64,000 nucleotides of DNA from Planctomycetota bacterium (GTDB lineage: Bacteria; Planctomycetota; UBA8108; SXIK01). The translations under genes and the position numbers were made by a program. The stretch is from positions 6,080,001 to 6,144,000 of the forward strand of contig OZ244999.1 in NCBI GenBank assembly GCA_965223265.1. The letters are read 5' to 3'. Shown in pieces: positions 38,784-55,904 of the stretch (position 1 is the first letter of the stretch; every line of letters starts with the position of its first letter). Under the pieces are notes generated by a model, which worked only from the letters and a program-made list of their open reading frames with translations, was not told where the DNA came from and searched no databases.

Positions 38784-40208
38784 GCGCCCCAGAACGAATC
38801 CCACCGTCGACCCAAGACGGCGCAACGTAGATTCAAAATCTGCTGGCCGCCGCGAGAGGACCACCGCATGCCCGATCGTTTGAGACGGTGTCCGACGACG
38901 GTCTTGCACGCAGCTTCGACGACACCGCTGCCAATCGGCAGTCCCTTGGTGAGATAGGTCGAGTAGCGCATGTGTTCACGGTTGCGGTCGTAGTATCGTT
39001 CGGTTTCGTGAAGAGTCTTCGCTCGCTTCCCTGACGTGATACCTCGCCGCGTGCGACGGTTGCGTAGGGACCGAAGTACGTGTTTGACCCCGTCCTTCTG
39101 CTCGAGAAGCTTCGCACGTTGCTCTCGGAACCACGTTGTCGCTTCCGAGCTCCCGGGACCAAACAGAGCTTCGGAAGCTTCGCGCAGCTTCTCGGCAGCG
39201 TGAAAGAAATCGAGGATGCCTGTGGCGCGCTTGAGGATCGGATGCCCAGACTGATACGTCCAGTTCGAGAGCGCTCCGTCGGCGAGAAAGACCAACTTCG
39301 CGCCCCGAGGAAGGCTGCCCTTGACAGCTCGGACCTCTCGGTCGAGCTTCTCGTTCAAACCTTCCACGCTTCCATCGGGCATTTCAGCGACGTACTTTGT
39401 TGAGAGTCGTTCACCAGCTTTGTCGTAGAGCGCAATCGTGCCGACCTCCGCCTGACGCCAGCCCTCGCCGCGAACGTTCACCATGGTGCCGTCTCGACTC
39501 ACAGCGGCGACCTTAGCCGACTCGGCTTCGTCTTCGGTGGACACAGCGTGCTCGAAATAGATCTCAGAGAGATCTTCTCCTAGCTCGCCGACTTCGCTTG
39601 CTACGTGCTTGATCACCGTCGCGCATGGACGAAGAAAGTGCCAGCGCCGACAGAACTCTTCGACTTCCGCGGGGACTGACAATGCCGTCGAGTAGCTCAC
39701 GAATTCGGCGGCCAGCGGTGTCATGCCGTGGTGCAAAATGCCTGCATTGCGCTCCAACGGACACATGGTGCGAGCCCTCGCCCCGTTGGCCTGATAGACC
39801 GTCCGCTTCACTTCGATTTTCCCAAGAAAGCACTGATACTCCCTTGGGGCCGCGGTACTTGCGGTAGTGCCGTTCGCCATCGATGTCGAGGTGCGGTTCG
39901 TCAACGTCGCTCTCTTCAAGAACCGTCCGTTCGATCGTTCGCCCAAGCTCCCCGAGCTGTTCGAACAGCGACCGCTCGAAAGCCGACAATGACCGCGGGC
40001 TCAAGCCCGCCGACTCGAAATCCCCGAGCGTTTCACAGAGCTGACGCTTGAACTCTCCAAGCAAATCGTCGATCTTCTCCAGCATTGTCATGTCCTTTCT
40101 CTTCACTGACTTTCCAATTCGAAGAGAAAGGACTTTTTTCGTGCCGTGTCAAGCTGCTACGCCTTCGTAAATCCCTACGAAACCGACGTTATGCGACATC
40201 TGCACCCC
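38718..40208 (-). mobile_element. ISKra4-like element; transposase 38744-40106 frameshifted near 39843
   Basis: IR GGGGTGCAG..GCATAACG at both ends; SRDG, FLADGALSNW, LDFFHA, GLPIGSGVVEAACK..RLKRSGMRW. Confidence 0.85.
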
Positions 40209-40219
40209 TCTCGGAGTGC

Positions 40220-40436
40220 AATACGCCAGCAATTCACGGTGTCGTCGCGTACGTCAGTACATCCCTCACCAACCGCCTCGTCGAGGGACTCAACAACAAG
40301 GCTGCGCATGATCGCTCGGCGCGCCTTCGGCTTTCACAATGCTTCCGCTTGATCGCGATGCTCATTCTCATCAGCGGCGGTATCCAGCTTGACTCTCCAC
40401 TACACGGAGTCGACCCGCTCGAACTTTAGGAGATCT
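40220..40436 (+). pseudogene. ISL3 3' remnant with right IR
   Basis: LTNRLVEGLNNK/RMIARRAFGF; end CTTTAGGAGATC resembles the IR near 23416-23428. Confidence 0.7.
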
Positions 40437-40460
40437 TCAAACATCCCCCAAAGAGGTAAA

Positions 40461-41114
40461 TCAGTTCAGCTGCAACAAGTTTACGAGCCGGAGGATGAAG
40501 AGCACGAAAAACGGCTTTCTCGTTGCGACCCATCCCGGAGTGATCGTTTCTCCCGTCTCCGTGACATAGACCGTCTCGTCGTCTTCCCACCGCAGATAGT
40601 CTCGCGTCTCTGCGTCAGCGTACGATACCGGGACGGAATAAATGTGACGCCGCACGAATGGAAGGCCGTCATAATTGAGAAACACTTCCACGTGTCCGTT
40701 GCCGCGCGCGTAAGCTCCTACCGGATAGAATTGAGCGATGACTGTTTTTCCTCCTCCTGGAGATCGCACTTCCTGCAGCGAAAAAGAGGCGCCCACCTCG
40801 GACAACCAAAACATCGCCGGTAAGGCAAGAAGCACGAAGATGAGTACGGCCAGGACGTGACAGGCGCTGCCAATCGCGGAGGGCAAAAGACACAGGAGAT
40901 GTGAAGGCCAGAACGAATAGGGTCGATACCGCACGAGGGTGACGAACGCCAAGAGACCTACCATAAAGGGGTATGCCACGTTTAGGAACGTATTCGCCCA
41001 AGCGTAGTCGGTAAGGAAACCAAACCATAAGATCCCCCCGAGCAGTAGGTTCACTGAAAGAAGGAACTTTGAAATCCGAGGTGGATCAGCCGATAGGCTC
41101 GACACATCGTTCAT
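40461..41114 (-). CDS. Hypothetical multi-pass membrane protein
   Basis: About 4 hydrophobic segments, then an EVRSPGG beta domain; probable start ATG 41114. Confidence 0.65.
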   Translation of the reverse strand: MNDVSSLSADPPRISKFLLSVNLLLGGILWFGFLTDYAWANTFLNVAYPFMVGLLAFVTLVRYRPYSFWPSHLLCLLPSAIGSACHVLAVLIFVLLALPAMFWLSEVGASFSLQEVRSPGGGKTVIAQFYPVGAYARGNGHVEVFLNYDGLPFVRRHIYSVPVSYADAETRDYLRWEDDETVYVTETGETITPGWVATRKPFFVLFILRLVNLLQLN

Positions 41115-41645
41115 AGAAAGAATCTTCGCTCTTCTGACGATTTGGTCGTCGGTGTGATGCCGATATTCTAACCGAGCGCCGCATGTTTTCCTCCTTTCGC
41201 TCCGGCCGAGCGGGCACATTAACGACGGCAATTTGTCCATGTCCACACTTTTCAACCAAAACTGGTAGCTCTTGCGTCACCAGCACCCCAGGTCAGGTAC
41301 CCAACTACCCGCCGACAACTTCCGGCGTCGCGACCTAGGTGGGCACTCGGTGGCGCGAAGCGATGGCCGACGCCAACTATCTTTCTCTCGCGACCACTAA
41401 GAATTACGTCACGACGCACTGGTCGCGACCACGTAACGCACCTAAGAAAAGGCCTTGCAAGCAGGCTCGCTCGAGCCTGCCCCGCCGACGCCGTGCGCCT
41501 TTCCCATCCAGACGCGCTTGAAGCACGCCCGTTACACAGTTCCGCCGCCGCACTCTGCTCACCGACCCCGGTCGATCCACGGAGCGAGAACGCCCACTAC
41601 CACCATTGTCTGCGAACGCAAGCTGAGAGGTGCAGCCCCAGGCCG

Positions 41646-42209
41646 CTACTTCCCCCCGCACTGCATCGGCTGATCGGCCGACGGGTCCAGAACCGCGCTC
41701 ACCATTGTCACCGCTCCGACCGTCGGTGTGATCTCCCCTGTCCAGAGATCGATGTCGCAGAAGTCTTCGACGGCCTTGAAATAGCCGCCGGGTCCGAAGA
41801 GGCCTCGCTGCATCCTCGTGGCGCGCCCTTCCTCGTTGAACCATACGCTGTAGTCTTCATGGACGAAACCTTCTATCTCCGGCTTGATGTGATGCTCGAA
41901 CATGTACGAGTGGATGAAGCCCTCGAACGGCACTCCCTTCTCCTTCATGTCGCGAAGGATCAGGAAGTTGTCTGTTCGCTTGCCGATGGCCTCCATGCGC
42001 GCATCGACTTCTTCTGCCGTCTGACCGAAGTTGACGCCGAGTGTTACCCACTCATAGCTGCCCTCCTCCCAGCCGAAGGCCTCTCGGCTCTGATCGTAAC
42101 CAGCGCGAAGCTCCTTATCGTGCTCGACCGAGTAGATATAACCACCGACGTAGATGCCGAGGATCGTGGCGAAAAACCCAAACTCCAGGAGAAACGTGCG
42201 ACCTTTCAT
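41646..42209 (-). CDS. Hypothetical membrane-anchored protein
   Basis: RBS AAGGAG, N-terminal TM, 187 aa, downstream of the ECF gene. Confidence 0.7.
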   Translation of the reverse strand: MKGRTFLLEFGFFATILGIYVGGYIYSVEHDKELRAGYDQSREAFGWEEGSYEWVTLGVNFGQTAEEVDARMEAIGKRTDNFLILRDMKEKGVPFEGFIHSYMFEHHIKPEIEGFVHEDYSVWFNEEGRATRMQRGLFGPGGYFKAVEDFCDIDLWTGEITPTVGAVTMVSAVLDPSADQPMQCGGK

Positions 42210-42317
42210 GTGACTCTCCTTTCTCTGTCCGACACTAGGATTCGGTCTCTACTTCTCTTGCTTCGCGCTCCCAGCGCAGAAGCAACTCATCTGCCCAGCG
42301 CTTCACGACACCGTCCA

Positions 42318-44984
42318 TCACTCCCCCACGTCCACCTCGACGTGCGTCGTCTCACCGGCAGCGACCTCGGCGCTGCCGCGCCAGACGACATGGCCTCGGC
42401 TTCTCACGACGACTCGGTACTTGCCGCTTTCGATCGTCGCGGCGAAGACGCTCCAGCGCTCGCCGCTTGCGTGCGGCGGCAAGTAAAGGCGCGCTCCATC
42501 TCTTCCGCGGCTCTGGCACTCGACCTCCGCTTCCGGGAGCGGCCGGCCTTCAGCGTCCGCAACGGAAAGACGCAAGACGCCGCGGCGTTCGAGGTCGATC
42601 GAGATCGACTGCGTAGCTCTCGCCAATTCGCTAGCGACGCGAGCCTTGTCATCGACAACTTCATCGTCAACTCCCCCCTCGCCCAAGGCATCCTCCTCGC
42701 CGCCATCGATCTCAAGCTCGATCGGCGGCGCGAGCGGATACTCAAGCTCCGGCAGCACAAGCTCATAGCGTCCCGGCACCAGACCTTCGAACGTGAACCT
42801 GCCATCTTCCGAAACTCTCGTCTCGCCGCTTCGATCTGCCCCCTCGAGACGCACTTTCGACACGTTATATATAGAGGCACCTGCAATCTCCCCGCTCAGG
42901 CTCTTAAGCCCCACCACGAACTGGACTTCGGGCATCGATGTCGCTGTGATGCTCAATCGCTCGAATAACTCCCAAACAGTAGGGCCCAGAATGCTGACGA
43001 CGTAGTCCCCCGGCGCGTGGCGGAACATCAAAACGCCGTCCTCTCGGGTCTTGCCGCGAAGGAACGCGGAGCCGGCAAATTGAACGAGCCTCACGACCGG
43101 CTTGCCGGCCGGATCAACGAAGCGTGTGGGGACGACGGCCGTCGGCGCTTTGCCGAGAACGACGTTCAGCGCTTCACCTTCCCCAAGCGTTGCGGTCACG
43201 TGATGGACAAACGGATTCCCGGCGCCCTTTGGCCTCTCGATCTCGAACCTGCACTCCGCCGCGGGAAGATGCGTGAAGACGCAGACGCCTTCGGCGTTCG
43301 TCGTCTCGGAGATGGCGTCGCCTGCAAACCTGCAGGTGACCTCGACGCCTTCTTGCAGTTTGCTCTCGGGATCGTAGACGCGCACAGTCACCTCGCCGCT
43401 TGGCGGTGCCGACGGCTGAAGCCATACCGTGTTGAGTCCTTCAAGGTCGACACTCCGAAGCGATGTGCTTTCGTATCCGTACGCTGCAACGTCGAGATCG
43501 TAGGCGCCTGCTCGAAGACCGCGAAACGTGCAAAAACCTTCTGCGTTCGAAACACTTCGGATGCGCTGGTAGGTGTTCTTCTCTTCGATGCGGGTCTTGG
43601 CCATGACTGCCGCTCGTGCGATCGATTCGCCCGTGACGGCGTCCTTCAGTGCAATCTGCGCCCTCAGCCGCGACCTCAAGACGATCTCAACCTTGCGGTT
43701 CTCCCCAAGTTCAGCGCGAAAGCGAGCGCGGCTCAGCCGCGGGTACTCATCGGCATACACCCGCGCAGTGAGATCGACGCCAATGAAACGCTCCGAAAGA
43801 AAACGCAAGCGCCGCGGGTTCCTCTCTGCGAGGTTGTACGTGTCGAGACGAAGCGCGATCTCATCGCCGCGCACAAGACCTTGGTCCGGACCTGGCACCA
43901 TGCCCGGACCGTAGAGTGTGACAGTTCCGTGACGGACCGGGACGTCCTCTTCGTCAACGACGTGAAGCTCGACCGACGCGAGCACGTTCGGTGGCTTGTT
44001 CTCTTCGACCGCTGCTGTCTCACCGCTTTCAGCTTCAGGCTCGGCGGCCGCAGCAGGCCTCGGCACCGGCGGCGCTTCAACGCTGTGCGCGACGGCTGGT
44101 GTTACCTGCGCCACTGGCTCACTCGCGGCCTGTGACTCAACCGCCGTGGGCTCCGGTGCGCCTGCAACGCCCGCGCGCTGCTTCAAGTCACGCTCGACCA
44201 TGCGCCACACCGCCGTGAAGATGAGAGAAGCAAGCAGCGCCGAAACCAAAAACAGCTTTGCCGCTTGAACCGAAGCGCCCGCGGGCAGCCGCTCGCGCGG
44301 GCGATTTCTGAGAGGTACCGAGTCAGGCGCGGGCGTAGCGTCGCTCCAGCTGCGGGCGATCTGATCGAGCCGTGCGGCGAGCGCCTTCGGGACTTCCGCT
44401 GCGCTCACCTTCATCTTCTCGTAGAGCGGATGCAGCACCGCCGCGATGAGAGCGAAGCGCGCCGGACTGAGTTTTTGACGTAGTGTCTTCGTGCCGGCTG
44501 CTATGCGATAGAGTACCGTGCGCCGATTTCGGTCGATCGCTTCAGCGATGGAATCGATCGATTGCCCCTCGAGGTAGCGCCTCTCAACGCACTCGCGGTG
44601 GGCGGGAGGGAGCGACTCGATCGCTTCGTAGATCACCGCCAGATCGAGAGGTGAGAGCCCGATGGGCGAGGAGGCATTCTCCACCACGTCTGGCGCCAGA
44701 ATCTCGTAGTGCCTTCTCGCCTCGCTCCGCTTTTTCGTGCGCGCGACCGACAGCGTCAGCGATGTCACGAAGCCGAGGCCGCTGCGGATCTTGTGGTCTT
44801 GCCAGCGGCTGGCGTCGCACAGCAGCAGGAACACATCTTGCGTGACGTCCTCGGCGAGCGCGTCATCCTTCAGCACCCGCGCCGCCAACACGTAGACGTG
44901 ATCGCGCAGCTCCTCAACAACGCTGCGAAAGCGCTGGCTCGTCGGTGCTTCAAGGTAAAGTGCGAGAACGTCTTTAGATTTCAT
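42318..44984 (-). CDS. ECF sigma factor fused through a TM helix to carboxypeptidase-regulatory-like repeats
   Basis: Sigma2 (AEDVTQDVFL) and sigma4 (AIESLP..RYLEGQSIDSIAEA); TM LFLVSALLASLIFTAVW; repeats such as TNAEGVCVFTHLP and SEDGRFTFEGLVPGRYEL. Confidence 0.88.
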   Translation of the reverse strand: MKSKDVLALYLEAPTSQRFRSVVEELRDHVYVLAARVLKDDALAEDVTQDVFLLLCDASRWQDHKIRSGLGFVTSLTLSVARTKKRSEARRHYEILAPDVVENASSPIGLSPLDLAVIYEAIESLPPAHRECVERRYLEGQSIDSIAEAIDRNRRTVLYRIAAGTKTLRQKLSPARFALIAAVLHPLYEKMKVSAAEVPKALAARLDQIARSWSDATPAPDSVPLRNRPRERLPAGASVQAAKLFLVSALLASLIFTAVWRMVERDLKQRAGVAGAPEPTAVESQAASEPVAQVTPAVAHSVEAPPVPRPAAAAEPEAESGETAAVEENKPPNVLASVELHVVDEEDVPVRHGTVTLYGPGMVPGPDQGLVRGDEIALRLDTYNLAERNPRRLRFLSERFIGVDLTARVYADEYPRLSRARFRAELGENRKVEIVLRSRLRAQIALKDAVTGESIARAAVMAKTRIEEKNTYQRIRSVSNAEGFCTFRGLRAGAYDLDVAAYGYESTSLRSVDLEGLNTVWLQPSAPPSGEVTVRVYDPESKLQEGVEVTCRFAGDAISETTNAEGVCVFTHLPAAECRFEIERPKGAGNPFVHHVTATLGEGEALNVVLGKAPTAVVPTRFVDPAGKPVVRLVQFAGSAFLRGKTREDGVLMFRHAPGDYVVSILGPTVWELFERLSITATSMPEVQFVVGLKSLSGEIAGASIYNVSKVRLEGADRSGETRVSEDGRFTFEGLVPGRYELVLPELEYPLAPPIELEIDGGEEDALGEGGVDDEVVDDKARVASELARATQSISIDLERRGVLRLSVADAEGRPLPEAEVECQSRGRDGARLYLPPHASGERWSVFAATIESGKYRVVVRSRGHVVWRGSAEVAAGETTHVEVDVGE

Positions 44985-45098
44985 TTCGTTCGTTTCGTTT
45001 TCACCGCCTTACGATTCGGCTTCGCTCGCGCGCTTGCTGGAGGATCGGGGCGATCGCTCCACGCCCAGTCCAAGCCGTCGAGAAGAGGGCGCGATCGA

Positions 45099-45371
45099 TC
45101 AGTTCAAAAGCGTGTAGTACAAAATCAAAGCCTGAATGATGAGTCCGAGCACGCCGAGAATGACAACGAACGCCCAGCTCACCTGGCTGCTGACCAGCCG
45201 GATGTGCTCGCGGTTCGTCACCACTTGGCTCGGGATGCTTTGGCCATTTCCGTGGATGAGCTTTCGCATCGCCTCGAGCTGCGTCTCGATTTTCGCGGCG
45301 CGCGTCTTGAGCGCCGAGACCTCGAGCGCGAGGCCGCCTTCATCGCTTTGACCGTTCATGCTGCGCGTCAT
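45099..45371 (-). CDS. Small coiled-coil protein with C-terminal TM (XhlA/phage-like)
   Basis: LKTRAAKIETQLEAMRKLIHGNG..WAFVVILGVLGLIIQALILYY. Confidence 0.6.
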   Translation of the reverse strand: MTRSMNGQSDEGGLALEVSALKTRAAKIETQLEAMRKLIHGNGQSIPSQVVTNREHIRLVSSQVSWAFVVILGVLGLIIQALILYYTLLN

Positions 45372-45699
45372 ACCCTTGAGTTTTCACCTCCGTCTCTCCA
45401 ATGTACTTCAAAAGGAAGAGCCGGCACCGGGCGCTATTGTGTGGTCGTCTCCCAGTGCCAACTCTTTCATGCAGGTCTACTTGTCTTTAGTGGTCGCAGT
45501 TACGTTTTTTTAGTGTTTCTTCACCTCCTTTCTCCGGGCGACCGACCCCACCTGTAGCCGGTCGCCCGAGTGACTCTGGAGCATCACTTCAATCACACCC
45601 GTGATCTCCTCGCTCCCTGCGTGCGGCTGAAAAGGTCCCGCCCTCCTCCCCGTCCCGTGCCGACGCCAGCGGTCGCCGCCGGTGTGGGACTGCACCGTT

Positions 45700-46122
45700 T
45701 CATCCGCGCCTCGCGCGCGCACCTCCAAGCTCGAACGAGCCAACCTCGGCTTCATGGATCCACGCACTGGAGCGCTCACCGGTGAGCTGCCAGATGCGAA
45801 TCGGCCGCAGGCGCCGGCGCCACCCGGCGCGTTTCACTCGCCACGGCATCGCGCTCCACTCGCGGCCGCGAAAGACGTTGCCGAGCAGCGGCCCGAGCGC
45901 CGAGCCGTCAACGCCATGCTCTTCCATCGCCGCGATGACGTCGTCGACGGTGCAGAGCCTCAGCGAGTGGCTGAGCGCACGTTCGGCGGCGACGCTTCGC
46001 GCCAAGGTCAAAAGTTCATTGGGCGCGACGGGTCGACGCGCACGAGCGCGGCGAAGCACTCGCACCTCGGGGCGCACTCTCGAGCGGCTCTGCCGGCAGG
46101 CGGTGCGCGCTTTGGACTGCAT
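45700..46122 (-). CDS. Hypothetical basic phage-like protein
   Basis: RBS AAGGAG before ATG 46122; TVDDV..ALGPLLGNVFRG..W..RPIRIW. Confidence 0.6.
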   Translation of the reverse strand: MQSKARTACRQSRSRVRPEVRVLRRARARRPVAPNELLTLARSVAAERALSHSLRLCTVDDVIAAMEEHGVDGSALGPLLGNVFRGREWSAMPWRVKRAGWRRRLRPIRIWQLTGERSSAWIHEAEVGSFELGGARARRG

Positions 46123-46175
46123 TCTCTCACTCCTTCTCAAAGGGCCAACTGATGAAAAACTGTTCTCCACCTCTT

Positions 46176-46203
46176 AGTTGCCGCTCGAGGGAGTTAGGTG
46201 ATG
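46176..46203 (-). promoter_or_regulatory. CATCACCT-N12-CGGCAACT motif, copy 1
   Basis: Upstream of the 46122 gene run; shares the downstream AAGAGGTGGAGAA with copy 3. Confidence 0.7.
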
Positions 46204-46289
46204 TGGAAAATCGAAAAAACGCGAAAAAACTTTCCGCACGCGGTCATCGAAGCAGTTTCATGGCGTGCGAAGTGGGCAGAGAGTGGCCG

Positions 46290-46467
46290 CGGGACCGCTA
46301 CGCGGGCTCAGGGGAACGCTACGGAAGTCGGTTTTGGCATAGCGGTCCCCGCGGGCGAGCTCGTAAGGTTCGCATGCAAAGGAGTTTGTGATGACGTAGG
46401 CCCGCTGGGACCGCTGGGACCGCTACGCGCGCATATACCCGCTGAAATCCGCGGCGATGTGACACAC
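46290..46467 (+). repeat. Diverged copy of the iteron arm (GGGACCGCT repeats)
   Basis: About 155 bp similar to 50072-50227, ending GGGACCGCTGGGACCGCTACGCGCGCATA..GATGTGACACAC. Confidence 0.85.
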
Positions 46468-47356
46468 GGTCTTTGGGGCGTTGGTGGGCTCTGTGTGCAG
46501 GATTGCGTTTGGTGCGGATTTCTCGTGCGGTAGTGGTCGCCCGCGGTGATCTTGCCGCGCGGAGGCGAACAACTCGAGCTGCTACGGGTCGGCAGCGCGG
46601 TGGCGCACGTGTTCGTCGCTGTCGGGGAACAATCGAGTCACGCTGGCCATCATGCTGACGCGGGCAACCGCACCGTGCTCTCGGCAAATCAACGAAAGCG
46701 TGTGTCCGGATGACGTGCTGGGCAACAGTCGCATAATGGGGTGCTCAACCCCGGAGAGCCCCTCGCAACTTCTCCTTCAACTCGGACAAAAGTCGAGACT
46801 TCTCAGCTTCATACGAAGCTCGGCCGAATTCTTCGGGGAGTTTCGCTGTCCCCAGAACGAAGATTCCCGTGGGTGTGTGGACGACTCTGAGCCGGTTTCC
46901 TCGTCCGAGTCCAAGCCAACTCGAGGATGTGCGAGTCGTCGACAATCCTGAACTCCTTGTCGAGGCTTTCATGACGACGCTCTCAAGAGCCAGATATCTT
47001 CCACAGAACGACGGCGAGCTGCGTCACGCTTGGCGAGACGTGACGCTTCACGCCGCCCTCTGAAGAACCTGTTGCGCTGCCCCGCTCGAAGCCAGACGGG
47101 CGATTTCGAGGCGAGATCGCGACTCACCTCGAGAACAGACGGAGCCATGCCGCCAGGAATACCATCAGGCAACCCGCGAGGCAAATGGTCGTGCCTGATC
47201 CGAGCCAGCAGAGGGTTGTGTGAAGCGCCCACGCAACGCATAGATGGCGCCCGTCCCTACAACGTCCGGTCAGAAGTTTTCTATTCGTGCTCGAGGACCG
47301 AGACCGTGAGACGATCGCCGATCGACTGGAAGGTCGTGCAACGTGGGGTGAACACC

Positions 47357-48037
47357 TCAGCGCGAGCCATCGACGCCTCTCTTGACGATCGAGTCGATGA
47401 CCTGAGACACGCCGAAACTCAATTCCGGATGATTATCTCGATACTCAAGCAGTGCCGGAAGTGCATCCGTAGCTTTCTCGCCCAGATTCTCAAGTGCCAA
47501 CAAGGTATACAGTAACGTGCATAGATCTTGACGTTTACGTCTCAGCTGCCTCACAAAAGCATCTACGACTATCTTCTCCGAGGCTCCCATTCGGTATAAC
47601 GTGTGCAGAGCCTGCGCGCGCATCTGAAAGTTGGAGTCCTCCACCGCTTCCACCAAAGCACGTAAAGAGGCGTCTCCGATATTCTCGAGCGCTCGAGCTG
47701 CATAGTGTATTTCCATGTACCTTCCGCCATGCCCCTCAGGAATCAAGATAAAGTGCCACAGATCGTCTACTTCGCCTGGAAGCTCACTGAAGTCTCGGAG
47801 CGGATCTGGCTCTCTTCGTACGACGTTGAGCAATTCAGGAACAGACTTCACAGACTTCAGATCGCCCAGAACCTCTGCGGCCCACCGCCTGCTTTCTTCG
47901 TTTTCAGCCTGAAGACATCGAATACACCACCACTCCCAGAACATGCCCTTGCACGCGAAAACCAACAAAACACCAGCGACGACCCCCACACCAACGGCAC
48001 ACCTACGACGCAACACGTCGTCTCGCTTCCCGCTCAT
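47357..48037 (-). CDS. HEAT/PBS-lyase repeat membrane protein
   Basis: N-terminal TM; RRWAAEVLGDLKS..SVPEL, AARALENIG, ALENLGEKATDALPAL. Confidence 0.8.
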   Translation of the reverse strand: MSGKRDDVLRRRCAVGVGVVAGVLLVFACKGMFWEWWCIRCLQAENEESRRWAAEVLGDLKSVKSVPELLNVVRREPDPLRDFSELPGEVDDLWHFILIPEGHGGRYMEIHYAARALENIGDASLRALVEAVEDSNFQMRAQALHTLYRMGASEKIVVDAFVRQLRRKRQDLCTLLYTLLALENLGEKATDALPALLEYRDNHPELSFGVSQVIDSIVKRGVDGSR

Positions 48038-48786
48038 ACACAGAACCGTAGGACTCTTCAGGCCATCAGGCGACTCGCTATATCATATCCATCATTCGCC
48101 AGAACGTGCCACTTTCACCACTTGGATCACCGCTGCCGACCTCGTGCGGACCTAAAGAATTCAAGGTTTTCCACCTTTTAGTCCCGGCGAATCTACTTGT
48201 GGCTGAGCTGCGGACAGTCGTCGTCACGCTGGTTTCTGTCGACATCTATACATCTATGCACCGCCGATCAGCGCGTCGCTTAAGTTCTCCGTGACACAGA
48301 TAGCTCTGTACGCACCGCGCAGAGACACCGAACGCCATGCGATCAAGCGATGACAAATCCGACAGCGCACCAGGCCAAGCAGAACGAAGCCCTTCGAATG
48401 TTCGCTCCGCGATTCTGATCGTGATAGCGATCGTTTCTCTGTTTCTCTCGCCTCTCGATTCTTTTCCGACGTCGATTGGGTCGGGGTTTTCGTTTCATCT
48501 CCGTCGAGTATTGCATGTGCTTTTGGTCTGGTTTGGATCATGCTCAAGGTCGTTGCGGCTTCCTCGAACGGAATCATCAAACCCCGCCCGCGGGACATTT
48601 TTGACGGCGCCGTATGTTTGGTTGGATCGACCATGTGGTGGGGGTTGGTCTTTCCGACGTAGAGACGTTCCCTCGATGAACGAGGCACCGCCGTACTCCT
48701 CACCATGCGATCACAACCCCCTTTGCGGTTCGGGGAAACACGGCAACGCAACGGGCAAAGTCCTTGTCCGGGGGTAGAATGCACGC

Positions 48787-49683
48787 ATGAAGGCCAAAGG
48801 GCGAAACGCTGTAATCGTCGGAGGGCTCTTGGCCCTCGCCCTCACGGCGGTTCTCATGGGCTACTGGCGGGAGATTCGGGTGTGGTATCTGCTCGTGACC
48901 CGCTTCGAGAGACTTCCGCACAATGAGCAAGGGTACCCGGAGTACCAGCACAGCGATACAGGGGTAGTGTTCGTATGGCTGCCAGGTGGAACGTTTCTCA
49001 TGGGAACGTCACCGGAACAACGCCAGGCCTATCTCAGCACCATGGCGGAAATGTCCAGCGCCAACAACATAGCCGTGACCCGGCAAAACTCGCTGGATGA
49101 GACTCCTCAAAGAGCGGTGACTGTGAGTTCATTCCTTATCGCGAAGTACGAGGTTAGCCAGGCAGAGTGGGAACGCATAATGGGAAGCAATCCTGCGCGA
49201 TTCAAAGGAGAAACCCTCCCTGTGGAGCAAGTATCCTGGCAGGAGTGCGTGGATTTCTGTGAGAAAATAGATCTCTCGCTTCCGACTGAAGCGCAATGGG
49301 AATACGCCTGCCGGGCGGGGACGAACACACTTTTTGCTTTCGGCAACACGCGACCCAGCAAGGCGCAGGTCAACTACGACAATTATATGACGGTTGAGGT
49401 CGAGGCAGTGCCCAATGACTTTGGTCTCCACAACACACATGGCAACGTTGCCGAATGGTGCGCGGACTTTTACGACCCGAATCGGTACGAGAAACTTCAG
49501 GAGGGGGCAACGGACCCCATCAGCAGTTCTCGTCCCGCCGGCAGCAACGACCTCCGGGTCATCCGAGGCGGCACCTGGAACTACGGTTGGTTTTACTGCT
49601 ATTCGGCTCTCCGTAGATATGGCCCACCGGACGACTACGTAGGTGCTGAGATAGGGTTCCGCCCTGTCTACAATCTCAAGTAG
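48787..49683 (+). CDS. FGE-sulfatase (SUMF1-like) domain protein with N-terminal TM
   Basis: PGGTFLMG, KYEVSQAEW, PVEQVSW, LPTEAQWEYACRAG, PNDFGL..GNVAEWC, RVIRGG, IGFRP. Confidence 0.9.
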   Translation: MKAKGRNAVIVGGLLALALTAVLMGYWREIRVWYLLVTRFERLPHNEQGYPEYQHSDTGVVFVWLPGGTFLMGTSPEQRQAYLSTMAEMSSANNIAVTRQNSLDETPQRAVTVSSFLIAKYEVSQAEWERIMGSNPARFKGETLPVEQVSWQECVDFCEKIDLSLPTEAQWEYACRAGTNTLFAFGNTRPSKAQVNYDNYMTVEVEAVPNDFGLHNTHGNVAEWCADFYDPNRYEKLQEGATDPISSSRPAGSNDLRVIRGGTWNYGWFYCYSALRRYGPPDDYVGAEIGFRPVYNLK

Positions 49684-49875
49684 ACCGGTGCCTGGGACCA
49701 TACATCTGTGCTCGTCGAGCGACCAAGTCGCACGACATGTCGGTCTGCCGGTCGACCGCCCAGAGTGAGCATCGTCGCTGCTTGCTCACCAACAGCCACC
49801 ACCGCTCACCGCCGAGCGGTCGCTCACGCTCAGACCGCCACCAGCCAAACAATCAAACAATCCCCACACGAAGAT

Positions 49876-50227
49876 GTGTGTGTCACATCGTCACCCCGAA
49901 CCGGGGTGTCTATGCGCGCGTAGCGGTCCCAGCGGTCCCAGCGGTCCCGCGGCTCATCTAAGTTCTTTGCGCATCGCACCTTGAGATGACGGCCATTCAA
50001 CATCCGTAGCGGTCCCAGCGGTCCCCTGGCGATCTGTAGCGGTCCCGTGGGCTAACCTCAGGCCCCGCTACGGGGACCGCTACAGCGCGCGTCTGGCGTA
50101 GCGGTCCCCCATCGCGCGCTCATAAAATTCGTATGCAAAGTAGTTTACGATGGCGCAGGCCCGTTGGGACCGCTGGGACCGCTACGCGCGCATAGACACC
50201 TCTGAAATCCGTCGCGATGTGACACAC
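49876..50227. repeat. ~350-bp imperfect palindrome with about 11 GGGACCGCT/AGCGGTCCC iterons (putative origin)
   Basis: Arms of about 95 bp, GTGTGTCACATCG..TATGCGCGCGTAGCGGTCCC and its reverse complement at about 50132-50227. Confidence 0.85.
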
Positions 50228-50330
50228 TCTCTCTCGGAGACTCTGCCGAGCCGTGCGCTGCCGATTGCACCTCACGCAAACTTCTTGCGTGGTTGCATCT
50301 GTTGTCGAACATCACGGGACGCGGCCTCGA

Positions 50331-50579
50331 TCAACTGCGCGCCCGACATCGCCTCAGCGCGATGTATCGCCGCACCTCCTCCGGCTCGAAGAGGAGTCTG
50401 CGCTCGGAGCGGATCACCGCAAGCTCGCCTCGCCGAATGCGCCGCCAAAGCGTCGTCTTCGAGACGCGCAGAATCTCGCACACCTCTGTTGAGCGCAGGA
50501 GCGGCTCGATCTTCTCTCCGGCTACCGCGCCGCCGGCGAGCGACTTCAGCGTCCGCCTCTCCATGTCGTTCGTTCCCAT
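50331..50579 (-). CDS. HTH_17/AlpA excisionase-like DNA-binding protein
   Basis: LLRSTEVCEILRVSKTTLWRRIRRGEL..RRLLFEPEEVRRYI; RBS GGAGG. Confidence 0.85.
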   Translation of the reverse strand: MGTNDMERRTLKSLAGGAVAGEKIEPLLRSTEVCEILRVSKTTLWRRIRRGELAVIRSERRLLFEPEEVRRYIALRRCRARS

Positions 50580-50721
50580 ACGTCCTCCAGTTGCGGGTCT
50601 CAGCGCCCTTCGGTTCTACGCGCGCTTGATCGCCTGCGATTCGCTGCTCGCGCACTCCCGATCGCCGCGCCGGCTTCAACGTCGAAGCTTTAAAAAGCAC
50701 GGCCAGCGCCTCCTACATGTC

Positions 50722-50749
50722 AGTTGCCGCAAACTGGCGTTAGGTGATG
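50722..50749 (-). promoter_or_regulatory. CATCACCT-N12-CGGCAACT motif, copy 2
   Basis: Upstream of the HTH_17 gene, same orientation. Confidence 0.7.
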
Positions 50750-50903
50750 CGAAAAATCGAGAAAATGTGAACCTCTTTGAACCGCCCTGCGATTCCTCGT
50801 CCGCACCGCACGCTGCGCGGTCCGCCCTCGCACTCGCCGCGGCTCGCTGTGCTCGCCACTCACCTCGAGTCGCTCGGGAGAACTCAACGCGACTCGGGCG
50901 GCC

Positions 50904-53645
50904 TTGAGCGGACTCAAAAGTCGACTTCACCAGCGCATTCGAAAATTTTTCCAGAATTCACATCACCTCAGGGGCTACTTCCGGCAACTAAGAGGTGGAG
51001 AATCTTTTTCTCTGCACGCTCGTGAACCCATGACGTGCAGAAAGCTCGCCTCAGCAGATTGTGGAGGAGACCCTTTGGTTCAATCTTCCCCTGAAAAACT
51101 ACTGGCGCACCACGCCAGACGCATCCGCGAATCCGCCGTCGCCGACGAAGTCGCCGCAGCGCGTGGCTACCGCTCCGTCGAGGTCCGCGCCGAGCTCAGA
51201 CGACTCGGCTTCAGCGAGCGACAAGCGCGCACCCCAGCGCTTCTCGTACCCATCTACGACGTTCACGGCGAGGTCGCCACCTACCAAATCCGCCCCGACA
51301 CGCCGCGGGTCGACCGAAACGGTAAGAGCGTCAAGTACGAGACGATCGCCGGCGCCCGCATGGTCCTCGATGTGCCGCGGCCCGTGCGTCGCTGGCTCGG
51401 CGATCCAGCGCGGCCGCTCTTCGTGACCGAAGGAGCACGCAAGGCCGACTCGGCAGTCTCGCAGGGGCTCTGCTCGATCGCACTCCTGGGCGTGTGGAAC
51501 TTTCGCGGCACCAACGAGCAAGGTGGCAAATGCGCACTGGCGGATTGGGAGTCGATCGCGCTCAAAGGACGCAAGGTGTACGTCGCGTTCGACAGCGACG
51601 TCATGGAAAAGCAAGCAGTGCATGCGGCGCTGGCGCGACTGAAGGGATTTCTCGAGTCGCGCCAGGCGAACGTCCGGCTGATCTACCTGCCGCCAGGGGA
51701 CGCCGGCGAGAAGGTTGGACTCGATGACTACTTCGCAGCTGGCGGTACGACGAGCGAGCTCCTCACCTTCGCCGAGACGGAGCTGAGGGGCGGCGCATTC
51801 ACCGCCGAGACCTACAGCGCCACCGAGGATGGGCTTGTGTGGAATCGCGTGCTTCGCGATGAAATCTCGCCGGTGCCGCTGGCGAACTTTGTCGCCACGA
51901 TCGTTCGCGACATTGAGATCGATGATGGTGCCCAGCCGCGGCGCGAGTTCGAACTGAGCGCGCGCCTCGGGAGTGAAGAGCGCAGATTCACCGTGCCCGT
52001 GGCTCGCTTTCGCAGCCTCGACTGGGCGAGCGAGCACCTCGGCGCCAAGGCGATCATCTATCCCGGCGAAGGCAAGCGCGATCACACGCGCTGCGCCGTG
52101 CAGACCTTGAGTGAAGAGGTGGAAGCGGCGAAGGTCTTTGCGCACACCGGTTGGCGGGCGGTAGGCGGCGAGCAGCTCTATCTCCACGCCGGTGGCGCGA
52201 TCGGTGCAGCGGGCATGTGCGCAGACGTTCGCGTGGAGCTCGAAAGCGCACTTGAAAACTACTCGCTCCCCGAGCCGCCGTGCGGCGCGGAGTTGACCGC
52301 GTTCGTGCGCGCGAGCATCTCATTCCTCGACGTCGCACCGCGCCGCGTCACGCTGCCTCTTCTTGCGGCCACCTACCGCGCCGTTCTCGGCGACGTTCGC
52401 GTCAGTCTCCATCTCGCCGGGCAGAGCGGGGCCGGCAAGACGGAGCTTGCGGCAGTAGCGCAGCAGCACTTCGGCGCCGCCATGGATGCGTCGAGCCTGC
52501 CGGGGAGCTGGTCGAGTACGGCGAACTCGCTCGAACGCGTGGCGTTCACTGCCAAGGACGCGCTCCTCGTCGTCGATGACTTTTGTCCGATCGGCAGTCA
52601 TCAGGACATCACGCGCCTGCACGGCAGTGCGGATCGGCTCTTCAGAGCGCAGGGGAATCGCTCGGGCAGGCAGCGACTGCGCGCCGATGGTGAAGTCATT
52701 CGGGCGCGGCCGCCGCGCGGACTGATCGTCTCGACCGGTGAGGACATACCGCGCGGCGAGAGTCTCCGTGCGCGCATGGTCATCGTCGAGATCGGGCGAG
52801 GCGACGTTGACTGGAGGGCGCTCACAGAAGCCCAAGGCGCCGCGCGCAGCGGAGAGCTTGCTGGTTCGATGGCTGCGTTCATTTCCTGGCTCGCGCCGCA
52901 GCGAGACGAGATGCGAGACGTGCTCGAGCGAGAGGTCGTGCGGCTGCGCGCCGAACTGGCGGAGAGCCCGCGTGCGCACAAGCGATCGCTCGGCAACTTT
53001 GCGAGCCTCCTCGCCGGTTGGAACATCTTTCTTTGGTTCGCGGTGGGTGCCGATGCCATCGACGGCAGTGCCGCAACGAAGCTCGGGGACGAGGCGAAGA
53101 ACGTCTTCCTGGAGCTCGGCCGCGAGCAGACCGAGCACGAGCGTGCAGAAGATGCGACCGAGCGCTTCTTCGCACTCCTCGGCGCGGCGATCGCGGCGGG
53201 CCAAGCGCACGTCGCCTCGGTCGACGGCACCCCACCGGACGACCCGCTCGCCTGGGGCTGGCGAAGCGCGTCCGGCGACGACCAGCGCGCACCGCTCTGG
53301 CAACCGCAGGGCGATCGCATCGGTTGGCTGGGATCGGAGGGCGACCTGCTGCTCCAGCCAGAGGCGGCGTACTCCATGGTGCAAAAGCTCGCGGCAACCG
53401 TCGGTGGAACGGTCGGCGTTGGGATGCGGACGCTTCAGCGACGGCTGGAGGAGAGAGGGCTTCTGCGGCGAGTCGATGCAGGCCGCACCACGGTGCGGGT
53501 GACGCTGCAGGGGGTGAAGCGGCGGGTATTGTGCGTGGCGTGTGAGATGGTAGGCGGGAGCGGAGGGGATTCGGGCGGCACACGCTCTGCGAGAAGTCTC
53601 GCCGAGAAGGGCCGCCGGGAATCGGTGCAGCGTTTCTTGTGGTAG
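50904..53645 (+). CDS. DUF3854 TOPRIM primase + DUF927-like P-loop helicase (probable start TTG 51075)
   Basis: QIRPD..KYET, FVTEGARKAD, VAFDSD, GLDDY; GQSGAGKT, LVVDDF, STGED; RBS GGAGGAG at 51063. Confidence 0.85.
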   Translation: MSGLKSRLHQRIRKFFQNSHHLRGYFRQLRGGESFSLHAREPMTCRKLASADCGGDPLVQSSPEKLLAHHARRIRESAVADEVAAARGYRSVEVRAELRRLGFSERQARTPALLVPIYDVHGEVATYQIRPDTPRVDRNGKSVKYETIAGARMVLDVPRPVRRWLGDPARPLFVTEGARKADSAVSQGLCSIALLGVWNFRGTNEQGGKCALADWESIALKGRKVYVAFDSDVMEKQAVHAALARLKGFLESRQANVRLIYLPPGDAGEKVGLDDYFAAGGTTSELLTFAETELRGGAFTAETYSATEDGLVWNRVLRDEISPVPLANFVATIVRDIEIDDGAQPRREFELSARLGSEERRFTVPVARFRSLDWASEHLGAKAIIYPGEGKRDHTRCAVQTLSEEVEAAKVFAHTGWRAVGGEQLYLHAGGAIGAAGMCADVRVELESALENYSLPEPPCGAELTAFVRASISFLDVAPRRVTLPLLAATYRAVLGDVRVSLHLAGQSGAGKTELAAVAQQHFGAAMDASSLPGSWSSTANSLERVAFTAKDALLVVDDFCPIGSHQDITRLHGSADRLFRAQGNRSGRQRLRADGEVIRARPPRGLIVSTGEDIPRGESLRARMVIVEIGRGDVDWRALTEAQGAARSGELAGSMAAFISWLAPQRDEMRDVLEREVVRLRAELAESPRAHKRSLGNFASLLAGWNIFLWFAVGADAIDGSAATKLGDEAKNVFLELGREQTEHERAEDATERFFALLGAAIAAGQAHVASVDGTPPDDPLAWGWRSASGDDQRAPLWQPQGDRIGWLGSEGDLLLQPEAAYSMVQKLAATVGGTVGVGMRTLQRRLEERGLLRRVDAGRTTVRVTLQGVKRRVLCVACEMVGGSGGDSGGTRSARSLAEKGRRESVQRFLW
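50961..50989 (+). promoter_or_regulatory. CATCACCT-N13-CGGCAACT motif, copy 3
   Basis: Upstream of the probable primase start, same orientation. Confidence 0.7.
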
Positions 53646-53928
53646 CGTGGAGAGGTGGCCTTGGGTGGAAAAACGATGCCTGACTTACTACGCCATGAAC
53701 TGCGGGCATCCAGCGGGAAACGGTGTCATAAGTAGTTCAAATTGATCAATTTAGGACTACGCTGACGACGCTCTGATAACTTCTTGGTTGAACCACGTTG
53801 GAAATCGCCTCGGACAATTAGCCCCGTTCGGACCAGTCTGAACGCCTGCCGGCCACCTTTGCGGCTCCGCGTCCGAGGATATAGAATGTGAGATTATCGG
53901 GCCGTTAAAGTGAAGAGCCCCTGCCTGC

Positions 53929-54966
53929 TTGCTGCCCTCGAAGGGGAGTGCTCCGTTGACAGAACGAGCAGAGGTCATACTGGTCGAGTCTCGACTGGAC
54001 GGCCTGACCACCAAATCCCGTAAGACCGCTGAGAACGAGATTCAACTGGTTTACTCGATTCTGAAGAAGGCGGTCGAGAGCCTCAGCGACCAACCGACGT
54101 TGGGTCGCTGCTCCCTTCGCTTCCTCGTGTCGCCTGAATACTCGCAAGTTGTTAACGAGGTTTCGCAGGAGTACGAGGAGGGCTTGCAGCCATACGCCGA
54201 TGTGCGAAGACACGTTGTGGCGATGGCGATCACCAAGTTTCGACGAAACCGAGACGACACGAAGGCGACCGTCATCGTCAATTCCCGGCTGTGGGACAAC
54301 CTCGAAGGCGAAGCTCTCTTCTTTCGGGTCCATACTCTCCTGCACGAGGTTTGTCATGTGTTGATGGGAATCCAAAAACTGGAGGAGAAGCCCAAGGCCC
54401 AGACTTTCGATTTCTATCGCAACTTCATCGCGGAACAGGCATACGAGGAGTACCGAGTAGACCACCTGACAGGTCAACTCATCGAGTCATTCGGGATCTT
54501 CAGTGACGGTGACGGCCGCCTGATCACAGCGCCCATGATGCTCGGCGATCGCTATTCTCACGTTGCCGTCGCTATGAGCGATGACATCGTTGACTGGGTT
54601 GACCGACGAGTCCGGAACTACCCGGCCACCCAAGAAGGTCTCAACGCCATTCACGATGAAGTCTTTTCGATGTTGCAGGAGTTATTCGTCGTTTTCGCCC
54701 ACTACCTTGCAACCAACGACGAGGAGAAGACAGACGATCTCAAAGAGAACCTAAAGCGCGCGAAGGGATTTAACGCTTTCGTCGAACCTGACTGGGATGC
54801 CCTTGTCAGTGGCTTCCAGGAACCGAGCTGGGACGTTGGCGTTCAGGGAATCGAACAGGTCTTTGAGAACACCCTTCATCGCATGGGAATCGTTCCGAAA
54901 GATGTTCCGGCGGGCCTCTACATAGGTGTTCATGAACCAGCCGTCGTTGGGGAATCCGCACCATGA
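53929..54966 (+). CDS. Hypothetical protein with HExxH (zincin-like) motif
   Basis: HTLLHEVCHVL followed by AYEEYRVD; ATGA overlap with the next gene. Confidence 0.7.
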   Translation: MLPSKGSAPLTERAEVILVESRLDGLTTKSRKTAENEIQLVYSILKKAVESLSDQPTLGRCSLRFLVSPEYSQVVNEVSQEYEEGLQPYADVRRHVVAMAITKFRRNRDDTKATVIVNSRLWDNLEGEALFFRVHTLLHEVCHVLMGIQKLEEKPKAQTFDFYRNFIAEQAYEEYRVDHLTGQLIESFGIFSDGDGRLITAPMMLGDRYSHVAVAMSDDIVDWVDRRVRNYPATQEGLNAIHDEVFSMLQELFVVFAHYLATNDEEKTDDLKENLKRAKGFNAFVEPDWDALVSGFQEPSWDVGVQGIEQVFENTLHRMGIVPKDVPAGLYIGVHEPAVVGESAP

Positions 54967-55850
54967 CGCCTGAGGAAAAGCAGAAGCATGCCGAGGGGGC
55001 ATATCACGGAGCGGCCGGTGTTGCGGAGTACATGGAAGAAAAGGTCAAGACGAGGCTCGAATCGATTCTGGGCGACCGCAGCCAACGCGAGACCCATCTC
55101 TTCGGCTACTTTCTCCGTGCCCTCGGCTTAATGCAGAGCGTCCGTGCTCTCAACAGCACACAACATTTCCAATCCGTTGTCGCGTGCAACAGGGCCTTGC
55201 TGGAAATCCTCGTTGACACGATTCTCGTTCGATACGACAACGACGGCCGCTCAGACAAGCTTCTTCCGGCATGGGAAGAGTCGGCCAAGCTCAAGCACTG
55301 CACGGCAACCGTTGAGTACTACAAGAAAACCAGACGGTACATCCCGGACGCCCTGCGAGTCAGGACGGATTTCGTCACGAACGACACGGCACGAGTGAAG
55401 GCGACTCGGGCGAAACTATGGCCGAATCGGCGGAAGCCAACGACTCATCCTCAGCGCTGGACGGGTCGTGCGAACCTGCTCGAAGACATCCGGGCTGCTG
55501 ACAACCTCCACACCGTTCATTTCCGCTTCTCGCAGTCGTCAAGTCTCGAAGAGTATTACGAGACAGAGTTTCGGGAGCTCTGCTGGAACGTGCACGGTTC
55601 GGGCTTCACAGCCATTCGAAACACACCTGCGGAGACCATCGTCGGCATCTGTTCGTTCGGCTGGCTATCCTCCGCCGATCTCGCCTTGGAATGCTCGAAG
55701 CTCGTGCTCTTGAGCTTCGGATTCGACAAGGTGCTGGATCTTCCCGACGAATGGAAAAACATCGAGGACAACAGAGTCCGCATCCTGTTCGACCTTGTTA
55801 CGAAAGGCGACACGGAAGAGCCTGCCGTAGCCCAGCCTATAGACGGTTGA
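54963..55850 (+). CDS. DUF5677-like (possible HEPN-related) helical protein
   Basis: NRALLEILVD..W..FRELCWNVHGS pattern. Confidence 0.65.
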   Translation: MTPEEKQKHAEGAYHGAAGVAEYMEEKVKTRLESILGDRSQRETHLFGYFLRALGLMQSVRALNSTQHFQSVVACNRALLEILVDTILVRYDNDGRSDKLLPAWEESAKLKHCTATVEYYKKTRRYIPDALRVRTDFVTNDTARVKATRAKLWPNRRKPTTHPQRWTGRANLLEDIRAADNLHTVHFRFSQSSSLEEYYETEFRELCWNVHGSGFTAIRNTPAETIVGICSFGWLSSADLALECSKLVLLSFGFDKVLDLPDEWKNIEDNRVRILFDLVTKGDTEEPAVAQPIDG

Positions 55851-55904
55851 ATCAGTTTCCTCCGTCCACATCCCTGGTCAGCGACAATTACTCCTATCGC
55901 CCGA

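Follow-up and report, generated by a model that had tools for sequence, protein, structure and literature searches.

A duplicated genomic-island core in a Planctomycetota genome may be controlled by its own membrane-anchored ECF sigma factor

We analysed a stretch of 64,000 nucleotides (nt) from a Planctomycetota bacterium (GenBank assembly GCA_965223265.1, contig OZ244999.1, here C1), C1:6080001-6144000, which is called the window below. The genome is a single contig of 9,179,496 bases with a G+C content of 0.608. The window contains a block of about 12 kb that encodes a primase-helicase, a small DNA-binding protein of the HTH_17 family and an 888-amino-acid (aa) protein, in which a sigma factor of the extracytoplasmic function (ECF) type is fused to a transmembrane (TM) segment and predicted external beta-sandwich domains. 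Three promoter-like sites of one type stand ahead of three gene runs of this block. The same sites are found in the second genomic copy of the block and nowhere else in the genome. Judging from sequence comparisons, we put the chances at about even that these sites are read by the sigma domain of the block's own ECF protein, so that the block would be wired to itself.

Results

A promoter-like motif is private to two copies of the block

The bipartite motif CATCACCT-N12/13-CGGCAACT has three matches in the window, 46176-46203 (-), 50722-50749 (-) and 50961-50989 (+). These are the positions and strands given in a first-pass annotation, which had been made from the sequence alone. No match appeared across 100 dinucleotide-preserving shuffles of the window. 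Genome-wide (9.18 Mb) there are six exact matches, three in each copy of the block; the second copy has its three sites at 2.808-2.812 Mb. Genome self-comparison located this second copy at C1:2816556-2805537, where window positions 41469-46576 and 49218-53568 recur inverted with identities of 88.9% and 95.0%, respectively. With 0, 1, 2 and 3 mismatches allowed in the 16 fixed bases (spacer 12 or 13), the genome contains 6, 1, 25 and 275 sites, and a reversed pattern used as a control gave 0, 2, 20 and 300. Since near-matches are no commoner than those of the control, no host regulon or resident phage uses the motif. The first-pass annotation had named a motif common before host genes as grounds for giving up its idea; all six genomic matches lie inside the block copies. 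The motif is genuine, its occurrence far exceeds chance, and it is confined to the two copies. The three sites of the window are as follows.

46163..46234 (core 46176-46203), minus strand: site 1, promoter-like, with a T-rich tract upstream and AAGAGGTGGAGAA downstream
50722..50749, minus strand: site 2, promoter-like, directed at the HTH_17 gene
50961..50989, plus strand: site 3, promoter-like, directed at the primase-helicase gene

The motif is asymmetric, and its orientation is always that of the downstream gene, 41-143 nt ahead of the start codon. The distance from the end of site 1 to the ATG at 46122 of a 140-aa open reading frame (ORF) is 54 nt; from site 2 to the ATG of the HTH_17 gene at 50579 it is 143 nt, and from site 3 to the in-frame ATG at 51030 of the DUF3854 and DUF927 protein it is 41 nt. 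Site 1 thus heads a unit made of the 140-aa ORF, a 330-nt gap, a 90-aa ORF, the ECF gene and possibly a 187-aa ORF, while sites 2 and 3 head the HTH_17 gene and the primase-helicase gene, respectively. Both the orientation and the targets of the sites had been described correctly in the first-pass annotation. It had also seen AAGAGGTGGAGAA at sites 1 and 3, which we find there as well; site 2 retains 5 of its 13 positions. Sites 1 and 3 have a 28-nt inverted repeat in common. When all six sites were aligned, the conserved stretch turned out to exceed the motif as originally drawn, with a T-rich tract (TTTTnTCnA...TTC) ahead of each site. A relaxed motif scan gave no additional credible sites in the block or its cargo. 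A scan for sigma-70 promoters found none at the three sites, and its matches in the region were at the shuffled expectation. Terminators predicted in the region were not above the shuffled expectation either, and no Rfam family was found in 40000-58000.

The ECF protein has the layout of a fused membrane sigma factor

42318..44984, minus strand: 888-aa ECF sigma-TM-beta-sandwich fusion (Pfam, AlphaFold model)

The protein matched the Pfam families Sigma70_r4_2 with 33 bits (cut-off 25.7) and CarboxypepD_reg with 87 bits, and Sigma70_r2 was just under its cut-off (22.2 bits against 24). TIGR02937 scored 37.3 bits (cut-off 42.9), and many ECF subfamily models match residues 15-175. Only the sigma2 and sigma4 domains are present, with neither sigma3 nor sigma1.1, as in group IV sigma factors. 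An AlphaFold model with 18 aligned homologues has a mean predicted local distance difference test (pLDDT) score of 74.8. It is ordered as sigma2 helices (residues 6-100), a disordered linker, sigma4 helices (112-171) and three short helices (174-216). These are followed by a long helix over the hydrophobic stretch (237-271), a disordered Pro/Ala-rich part (271-332) and beta-sandwich domains (337-885). A predicted TM segment C-terminal to sigma4, followed by an extracytoplasmic domain, is what characterizes fused sigma/anti-sigma proteins, and the modelled architecture appears to be that of such a protein. The order sigma, TM, extracellular repeats, which had been read from the sequence in the first-pass annotation, agrees with both Pfam and the model.

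Foldseek with the full model returned only generic immunoglobulin (Ig)-like/beta-sandwich arrays of the adhesin or pilin type. In a word-indexed search of 5.8 billion clustered proteins the ECF protein matched itself only, and single-protein patterns found no close relatives in metagenome or viral contigs. HMMER applied to 1.84 billion representatives retrieved a family of ~850-aa proteins with the same layout, which are 21-28% identical to the ECF protein over the full length (18-sequence alignment). A scan of contigs with a narrower ECF alignment gave 80 loci, mostly generic ECFs, and only two of them (L101 and L102) come close to the ECF family. This genome and related ones encode many long ECF fusion proteins. 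Neighbouring pairs of an ECF gene with a Ser/Thr-kinase-WD40 gene, together with weak matches to planctomycete sigma subfamilies, point to Planctomycetota.

A half of the motif precedes ECF homologues in other genomes

Outside this genome, the full-length ECF family was found in 2 of 301 genomes of the phylum, G144 and G167. G144 carries two full-length homologues (on C61 and C67) and a partial match on C15, and G167 carries one (on C36). The search of the 301 genomes of the phylum, and of 17 genomes of the class of G144, gave no additional full-length members. The exact 8-mer CGGCAACT stands 38-40 nt before the ATG of the homologues at G144:C67 and G167:C36, which are chromosomal and come from two other genera. 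At both, a Shine-Dalgarno sequence separates the 8-mer from the ATG, an arrangement that suits a -10 element rather than a -35 element. The third full-length homologue, at G144:C61, has CGGTGAACT at -31. The combination TTCTCCGG-N14-17-CGGCAACT occurs once in the genome of G144 and once in that of G167. The 8-mer itself is found 328 times in G144, 432 times in G167 and 622 times in G000, which puts the chance per given 40-nt window at ~1e-3. At the 80 generic ECF loci from metagenomes, GGCAACT was never found at -60 to -20 of the estimated start. The position of CGGCAACT ahead of the homologues appears to link the motif to the ECF family, and we consider this the most telling of four lines of evidence.

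The sites and the sigma domain are conserved between the two copies

The window copy was compared with the second copy by the fraction of changed codons that are non-synonymous, with the following results.

Primase-helicase: 105 synonymous, 17 non-synonymous; fraction 0.14
HTH_17 gene: 6 synonymous, 2 non-synonymous; fraction 0.25
90-aa ORF 45099-45371: 5 synonymous, 2 non-synonymous; fraction 0.29
140-aa ORF 45700-46122: 17 synonymous, 9 non-synonymous; fraction 0.35
ECF gene: fraction 0.37
187-aa ORF 41646-42209: 72 of 109 changed codons non-synonymous, small indels; fraction 0.66, doubtful
Antisense and overlapping ORFs: fraction 0.7-0.9

By this measure five genes, those of the 140-aa, 90-aa, ECF, HTH_17 and primase-helicase proteins, are under purifying selection in both copies. 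The ECF protein is 93% identical between the copies, and its changes are distributed unevenly. The sigma domain has 15 synonymous changed codons and one non-synonymous, which falls in the inter-domain linker; the remainder of the protein has 90 and 60, respectively (Fisher p = 0.006).

The sites behave in a similar way. Over 72 nt, site 1 with its flanks (46163-46234) has a single difference, which is located in the spacer; the overall divergence of the block is 11.6% (binomial probability ~1e-3, computed for 76 nt). The HTH_17 and primase genes are separated by 450 nt of intergenic DNA. Of the 13 changes there, 12 are found in the middle 150 nt (probability 1.7e-5), a part that lies between and upstream of sites 2 and 3. 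Both sites with their 5' leaders hold the one remaining change: the site 2 region (50550-50749) has no differences between the copies, and the site 3 region (50900-51049) has one. The sites and 5' leaders are thus far better conserved than the neighbouring intergenic DNA. The putative reader and the sites are conserved together, while the sensor part drifts.

The block carries a candidate replication module

51030..53645, plus strand: 871-aa DUF3854 (Toprim-like) and DUF927 (Cch/SaPI-Rep-type helicase) protein (Pfam, PHROGs 'DNA primase')
46292..46424: iteron cluster A, 4 copies of GGACCGCT in both orientations, in the ~140-nt repeat 46335-46477, immediately upstream of site 1
49922..50183: iteron cluster B, 10 copies of GGACCGCT in both orientations, 9-bp tandem runs

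The primase-helicase matched PF12965 (70.8 bits) and PF06048 (30.2 bits), both above the cut-offs. Its frame is 913 aa long and likely starts at the ATG at 51030, downstream of site 3. Homologues with 37-66% identity were found at 49 loci in Chloroflexota, Planctomycetota, Acidobacteriota, Actinomycetota and other phyla. Neighbours at the six loci examined include integrases (L003, L011), AlpA directly before the primase (L011), a terminase-like gene (L009) and an Abi gene (L021), and therefore the primase family belongs to integrative, phage-related elements. At L021, from a Capsulimonadaceae genome, the gene of a 407-aa Sigma70_r4_2/GerE protein (8190-9413) comes immediately before a small ORF and the primase homologue. 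This locus is probably another element of the primase family with a sigma-region-4-type regulator.

The window block contains 14 copies of the iteron GGACCGCT in two clusters, and copy 2 contains 21 in three clusters. For GGGACCGCT, 33 of 89 genomic copies lie inside the two block copies. According to PMC10079941, experiments have identified cyanobacterial DUF3854 proteins as Rep proteins of plasmids, and replication depends on the region upstream of the gene. In PMC7581432, DUF927 marks Cch and the Rep helicase of SaPIbov1, and Rep helicases of Staphylococcus aureus pathogenicity islands (SaPIs) bind origin iterons. As sequence features, the primase-helicase and the iteron clusters correspond to a replication initiator with its origin, and clusters A and B look like origins.

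The iteron-bearing sequence is part of a repeat of ~100-140 nt, which is present in three copies (window 46335-46477, 49878-49970 and 50094-50237). Two copies are direct and flank 3.6 kb with the variable cargo; one is inverted.

Small genes of the block

41646..42209, minus strand: 187-aa ORF at the end of the leftward run, with a hydrophobic segment in its N-terminal part; coding doubtful, no family match
45099..45371, minus strand: 90-aa ORF immediately upstream of the ECF gene; its N-terminal part is coiled and its C-terminal tail hydrophobic; no family match
45700..46122, minus strand: 140-aa ORF, basic and arginine-rich, first gene downstream of site 1
50331..50579, minus strand: 82-aa HTH_17 protein, MerR/excisionase-type DNA-binding (Pfam PF12728, E 5.7e-11)

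The sequence search with the 140-aa ORF returned no homologue beyond itself; by language-model features, its nearest neighbours are viral hypothetical protein clusters (score 0.94). The HTH_17 protein matches PHROG 66, 'excisionase and transcriptional regulator', and is below the cut-off of TIGR01764 (27.4 bits against 28.8). The excision role that had been proposed for it in the first-pass annotation found no support, as the common block has no integrase partner. For the same reason, the HTH_17 protein may simply be a regulator.

The surroundings of the block are a mosaic

46576..49218: variable cargo, present in the window copy only and absent from the second copy

The neighbourhood of the block is a mosaic of insertion sequence (IS) elements and duplicated segments. 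The cargo consists of two small ORFs, a HEAT-repeat gene (47357-48037, minus strand), an ORF of 176 aa and the 5' portion of a gene with an FGE-sulfatase domain (48787-49683, plus strand). The small ORFs, 46745-46972 and 46969-47241 (both minus strand; 75 and 90 aa), overlap in a toxin-antitoxin-like layout and have no family match. The difference in cargo between the copies could stem from recombination between the ~100-140-nt repeats. A third copy of the primase gene, truncated to its 3' part, lies about 30 kb before the window (C1:6050026-6051611). The third copy and copy 2 have a further right flank of ~15 kb in common, with ~91% identity (C1:2791019-2807223 on the side of copy 2). This flank encodes a 193-aa ECF sigma factor, a Ser/Thr-kinase-WD40 gene product and a protein of ~1500 aa; the window copy has unrelated genes in its place.

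An IS of 1.49 kb (window 38715-40208) lies ~1.3 kb to the left of the block. It encodes an ISKra4-family transposase (200.6 bits) and has three more genomic copies at ~99%. A 51-nt inverted repeat pair, 41380-41430 and 56733-56783 (78% complementary, with a hairpin in each arm), brackets 15.4 kb, that is, the block and 3 kb of cargo. This pair was considered as the ends of an element and rejected: it is not present at copy 2, and the one other genomic copy, at C1:3300764, is partial. Downstream of the primase gene, a DUF5677 protein (54963-55850; 26.2 bits, cut-off 27.1) adjoins unannotated ORFs of 345 and 740 aa. Farther to the left, a 1179-aa SIR2_2 protein (31674-35213, minus strand) adjoins an IS that encodes a DDE_Tnp_1 transposase (35379-36767) and recurs elsewhere in the genome; the SIR2_2 domain is known from defence systems. 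The 3.4 kb at 24029-27410 are 99.97% identical to C1:2468207-2471588, which suggests a very recent duplication or an active element.

One contig of low depth (2.8; run X2) joins window position 50554 to 42430 with 17 other letters between them. X2 is one of four runs of one study whose contigs were compared with 40000-58000; these contigs are fragmentary across the repeated block. The junction could be that of a circle or a tandem, or an assembly artefact between the two copies.

Discussion

Based on the three sites, their conservation and the layout of the ECF protein, we propose the following circuit. The block 41469-53568 would form the conserved core of a replicative genomic island with two genomic copies. 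Its three transcription units would share one promoter type, consisting of the T-rich tract, CATCACCT as the -35 element, a gap of 12-13 nt and CGGCAACT as the -10 element. The reader of this promoter would be the sigma domain (about residues 1-175) of the 888-aa ECF protein, in which sigma2-sigma4, three short helices, one TM helix and a Pro/Ala-rich linker are followed by about six beta-sandwich domains predicted to lie outside the membrane. While tethered, the sigma factor would be inactive or weakly active. A cue from the envelope or from outside the cell would set the sigma domain free, with regulated proteolysis as the route suggested by analogy. Once free, the sigma factor would act on its own operon as positive feedback, on the HTH_17 regulator and on the DUF3854/DUF927 primase-helicase, which may use the iteron clusters at 46292-46424 and 49922-50183 as origins. 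We infer the motif reader, the signal, the release step and replication; for an extracellular signal and proteolytic release of the sigma domain, the only guide is the analogy with fused sigma/anti-sigma proteins. It is possible, though doubtful as a whole, that the island has its own one-component envelope sensor, a tethered ECF factor that would respond to a cue such as phage contact or envelope damage and switch on Rep, the regulator and itself from host-insulated promoters.

Several results weigh against reading of the sites by the block's own sigma domain. The usual ECF promoter signature is AAC in the -35 element and CGT in the -10 element, and CATCACCT and CGGCAACT lack it; that CGGC could replace CGTC is a conjecture. 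The ECF gene lies 1.2 kb behind site 1, past two small genes and a 330-nt untranslated gap, and the relaxed scan found no motif copy of its own directly ahead of it. Between sigma4 and the membrane helix, the short segment 174-216 matches no anti-sigma family of Pfam. Only the second (-10) half-site is common to the upstream regions of the homologues, and the -35 halves differ. As the two upstream regions with a match are homologues of one another, they count as a single independent observation, and this match was noticed post hoc. The two block copies are paralogues in one genome, so their comparison is not an independent evolutionary replicate. Homologues of the ECF, HTH_17, 140-, 90- and 187-aa proteins are present at none of the 49 other primase loci (tblastn, E <= 1e-4), 31 of which have the full 10 kb upstream. 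On this point the expectation of the first-pass annotation, that homologous primase loci would carry the ECF gene, has failed. The ECF gene is thus a lineage-specific acquisition and not a feature of the element family. Conversely, no primase was found at the four loci of ECF homologues, one of which reaches the contig end after 6.2 kb. The block also lacks hallmarks of mobility: neither 41469-53568 nor its counterpart in copy 2 contains a PF00589 integrase, and no att sites or flanking direct repeats were found at the common block.

The PF00589 matches closest to the block are, in the window, a fragment at 63471-63686 and, near copy 2, genes some 15 kb away. The integrases near copies 2 and 3 were considered as the block's own and rejected: their order and orientation differ, and none can be assigned. 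No serine recombinase was seen among the ORFs scanned with Pfam, a scan that was not extended to the whole genome. The ORFs of 40461-59611 contain no relaxase, capsid remodelling, small terminase or packaging families (Pfam, PHROGs, NCBIfam). Thus, the label of a satellite or an integrative and mobilizable element, used in the first-pass annotation, is unproven for a common block with no integrase, att site, relaxase or packaging gene. Since the block has no integrase, and its flanks and the integrases in them differ between the copies, the 12 kb are best called the conserved core of a mosaic island. As a whole, the original interpretation stands in part. Its wiring gained from the exclusivity of the motif, the footprints between the copies and CGGCAACT before the ECF homologues, and its satellite label and excision role did not hold.

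Alternatively, a factor encoded outside the block may read the sites as promoters or activator sites, and the block ECF would be a cargo that serves the host. Candidates would be a sigma factor or late activator of a non-resident helper phage, or another host ECF, in parallel to the helper response of satellite phage P4 and of phage-inducible chromosomal islands (PICIs). Known satellites are switched on by helper-encoded proteins, and the absence of the ECF gene from all 49 primase loci, like the missing -35 half-site at the ECF homologues, would be natural under such an arrangement. It would also agree with the abundance, in this lineage, of chromosomal genes for ECF fusions that vary in their C-terminal extensions (PMC7671368). 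An outside reader fits poorly with other results: no other site in the 9.18-Mb genome is above the control rate, the motif heads the ECF operon itself, its -10 half matches the upstream regions of the ECF homologues, and the sigma domain is almost frozen between the copies. We find an outside reader rather unlikely.

Another candidate reader is a block-encoded DNA-binding protein, either HTH_17 or the basic 140-aa ORF product, for which the motif would be an operator, with transcription starting from other, unrecognised promoters. HTH_17/AlpA-type proteins do adjoin the primase in related elements, for example at L011, the 140-aa ORF is arginine-rich with viral-type features, and the conserved stretch (~72 nt) is longer than a minimal promoter. 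But the half-sites are unrelated in sequence and are neither palindromic nor direct repeats, and their orientation tracks the downstream gene. Moreover, the three sites have no sigma-70-type promoter, with regional matches at the shuffled expectation, and the 8-mer precedes ECF homologues in genomes with no HTH_17 or 140-aa match in the stretches examined. This makes an operator quite improbable. It is least probable of all, and hardly to be expected, that the three sites are functionless copies of one ancestral sequence kept by recent duplication in a decaying remnant. The 28-nt inverted repeat common to sites 1 and 3, the mosaic of IS elements and duplicated segments and the truncated third primase copy would agree with decay. 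Purifying selection on five genes in both copies would not, nor would the conservation of the sites and 5' leaders, which far exceeds that of adjacent intergenic DNA. At site 2 the flanks have diverged from those of sites 1 and 3, and both half-sites are exact.

If the sigma domain of the block does read the three sites, the element owns a transmembrane sensor-sigma factor and a private class of promoters for its replication genes. Mobile elements are usually described as switched on via repressors, SOS signals or helper-phage proteins. Here, neither a repressor nor a helper activator would decide on replication; a dedicated signal-transducing sigma factor would. This would be a compact and apparently orthogonal circuit from signal to replication, through which the cues sensed by such islands could be approached directly. 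For engineering, an insulated sigma/promoter pair would become available in a phylum that is hard to manipulate. In the titles and abstracts of the matches listed, we found no published case of a membrane-anchored sensor-sigma factor in a replicon-like block whose units all have one private promoter, which is weak evidence of absence.

The closest parallels of the ECF protein are fused membrane sigma/anti-sigma proteins. As described in PMC8999054, IutY of Pseudomonas putida (group ECF243) and SCO4117 of Streptomyces coelicolor (group ECF52) likewise contain sigma, TM, proline-rich linker and extracytoplasmic domains in one polypeptide. The same text gives proteolytic release of sigma, proposed or shown, as the way in which they are activated, by Prc and RseP in the case of IutY. 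Unlike them, the 888-aa protein has no zinc-finger or other recognisable anti-sigma domain, its outer part is an array of CarboxypepD_reg-type beta-sandwiches, and its gene lies in a duplicated replicon-like block with a replication module as the putative regulon. ECFs with diverse C-terminal extensions are common in Planctomycetes (PMC7671368), and the block ECF resembles them as a long fusion whose ~850-aa family aligns over the full length at 21-28% identity. In contrast to the block ECF, the Planctomycete homologues inspected are chromosomal, with a primase nearby at 0 of 4 loci. Xpf of PBSX, a defective prophage of Bacillus subtilis, is a prophage-encoded sigma2-sigma4 (group IV) factor according to PMC10141391. 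The block ECF is similar in that it is proposed to be a sigma2-sigma4 factor encoded by an element and driving the element's own genes. Xpf is a small soluble protein under repressor control that drives late morphogenesis and lysis genes, whereas the block ECF is predicted to be membrane-anchored with a large external domain, and its putative targets are replication and regulatory genes.

The replication module resembles Pri-Rep-ori of SaPIs and PICIs and Cch of SCCmec (PMC7581432), as well as CyRepA (PMC10079941): a Rep protein with DUF927 and DUF3854 has short iterons nearby. Unlike the modules of SaPIs and PICIs, the iterons of the block lie upstream of rep, with a second cluster 3.5 kb away, and not just downstream, and no integrase, Stl-like repressor or packaging genes were recognised in the common block. 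Satellite phage P4 has the alpha primase-helicase with ori and crr repeats and is controlled by an RNA immunity system and helper activators, with no sigma factor. The block resembles it in layout, with one large primase-helicase and short repeats in two separate clusters. Each component of the block is therefore of a known kind: fused membrane ECFs, sigma2-sigma4 factors of mobile elements and Rep-plus-iteron modules. What would be new, on the basis of one genome, is their combination, a membrane-anchored sensor-sigma factor in a replicon-like block with three units under one private promoter.

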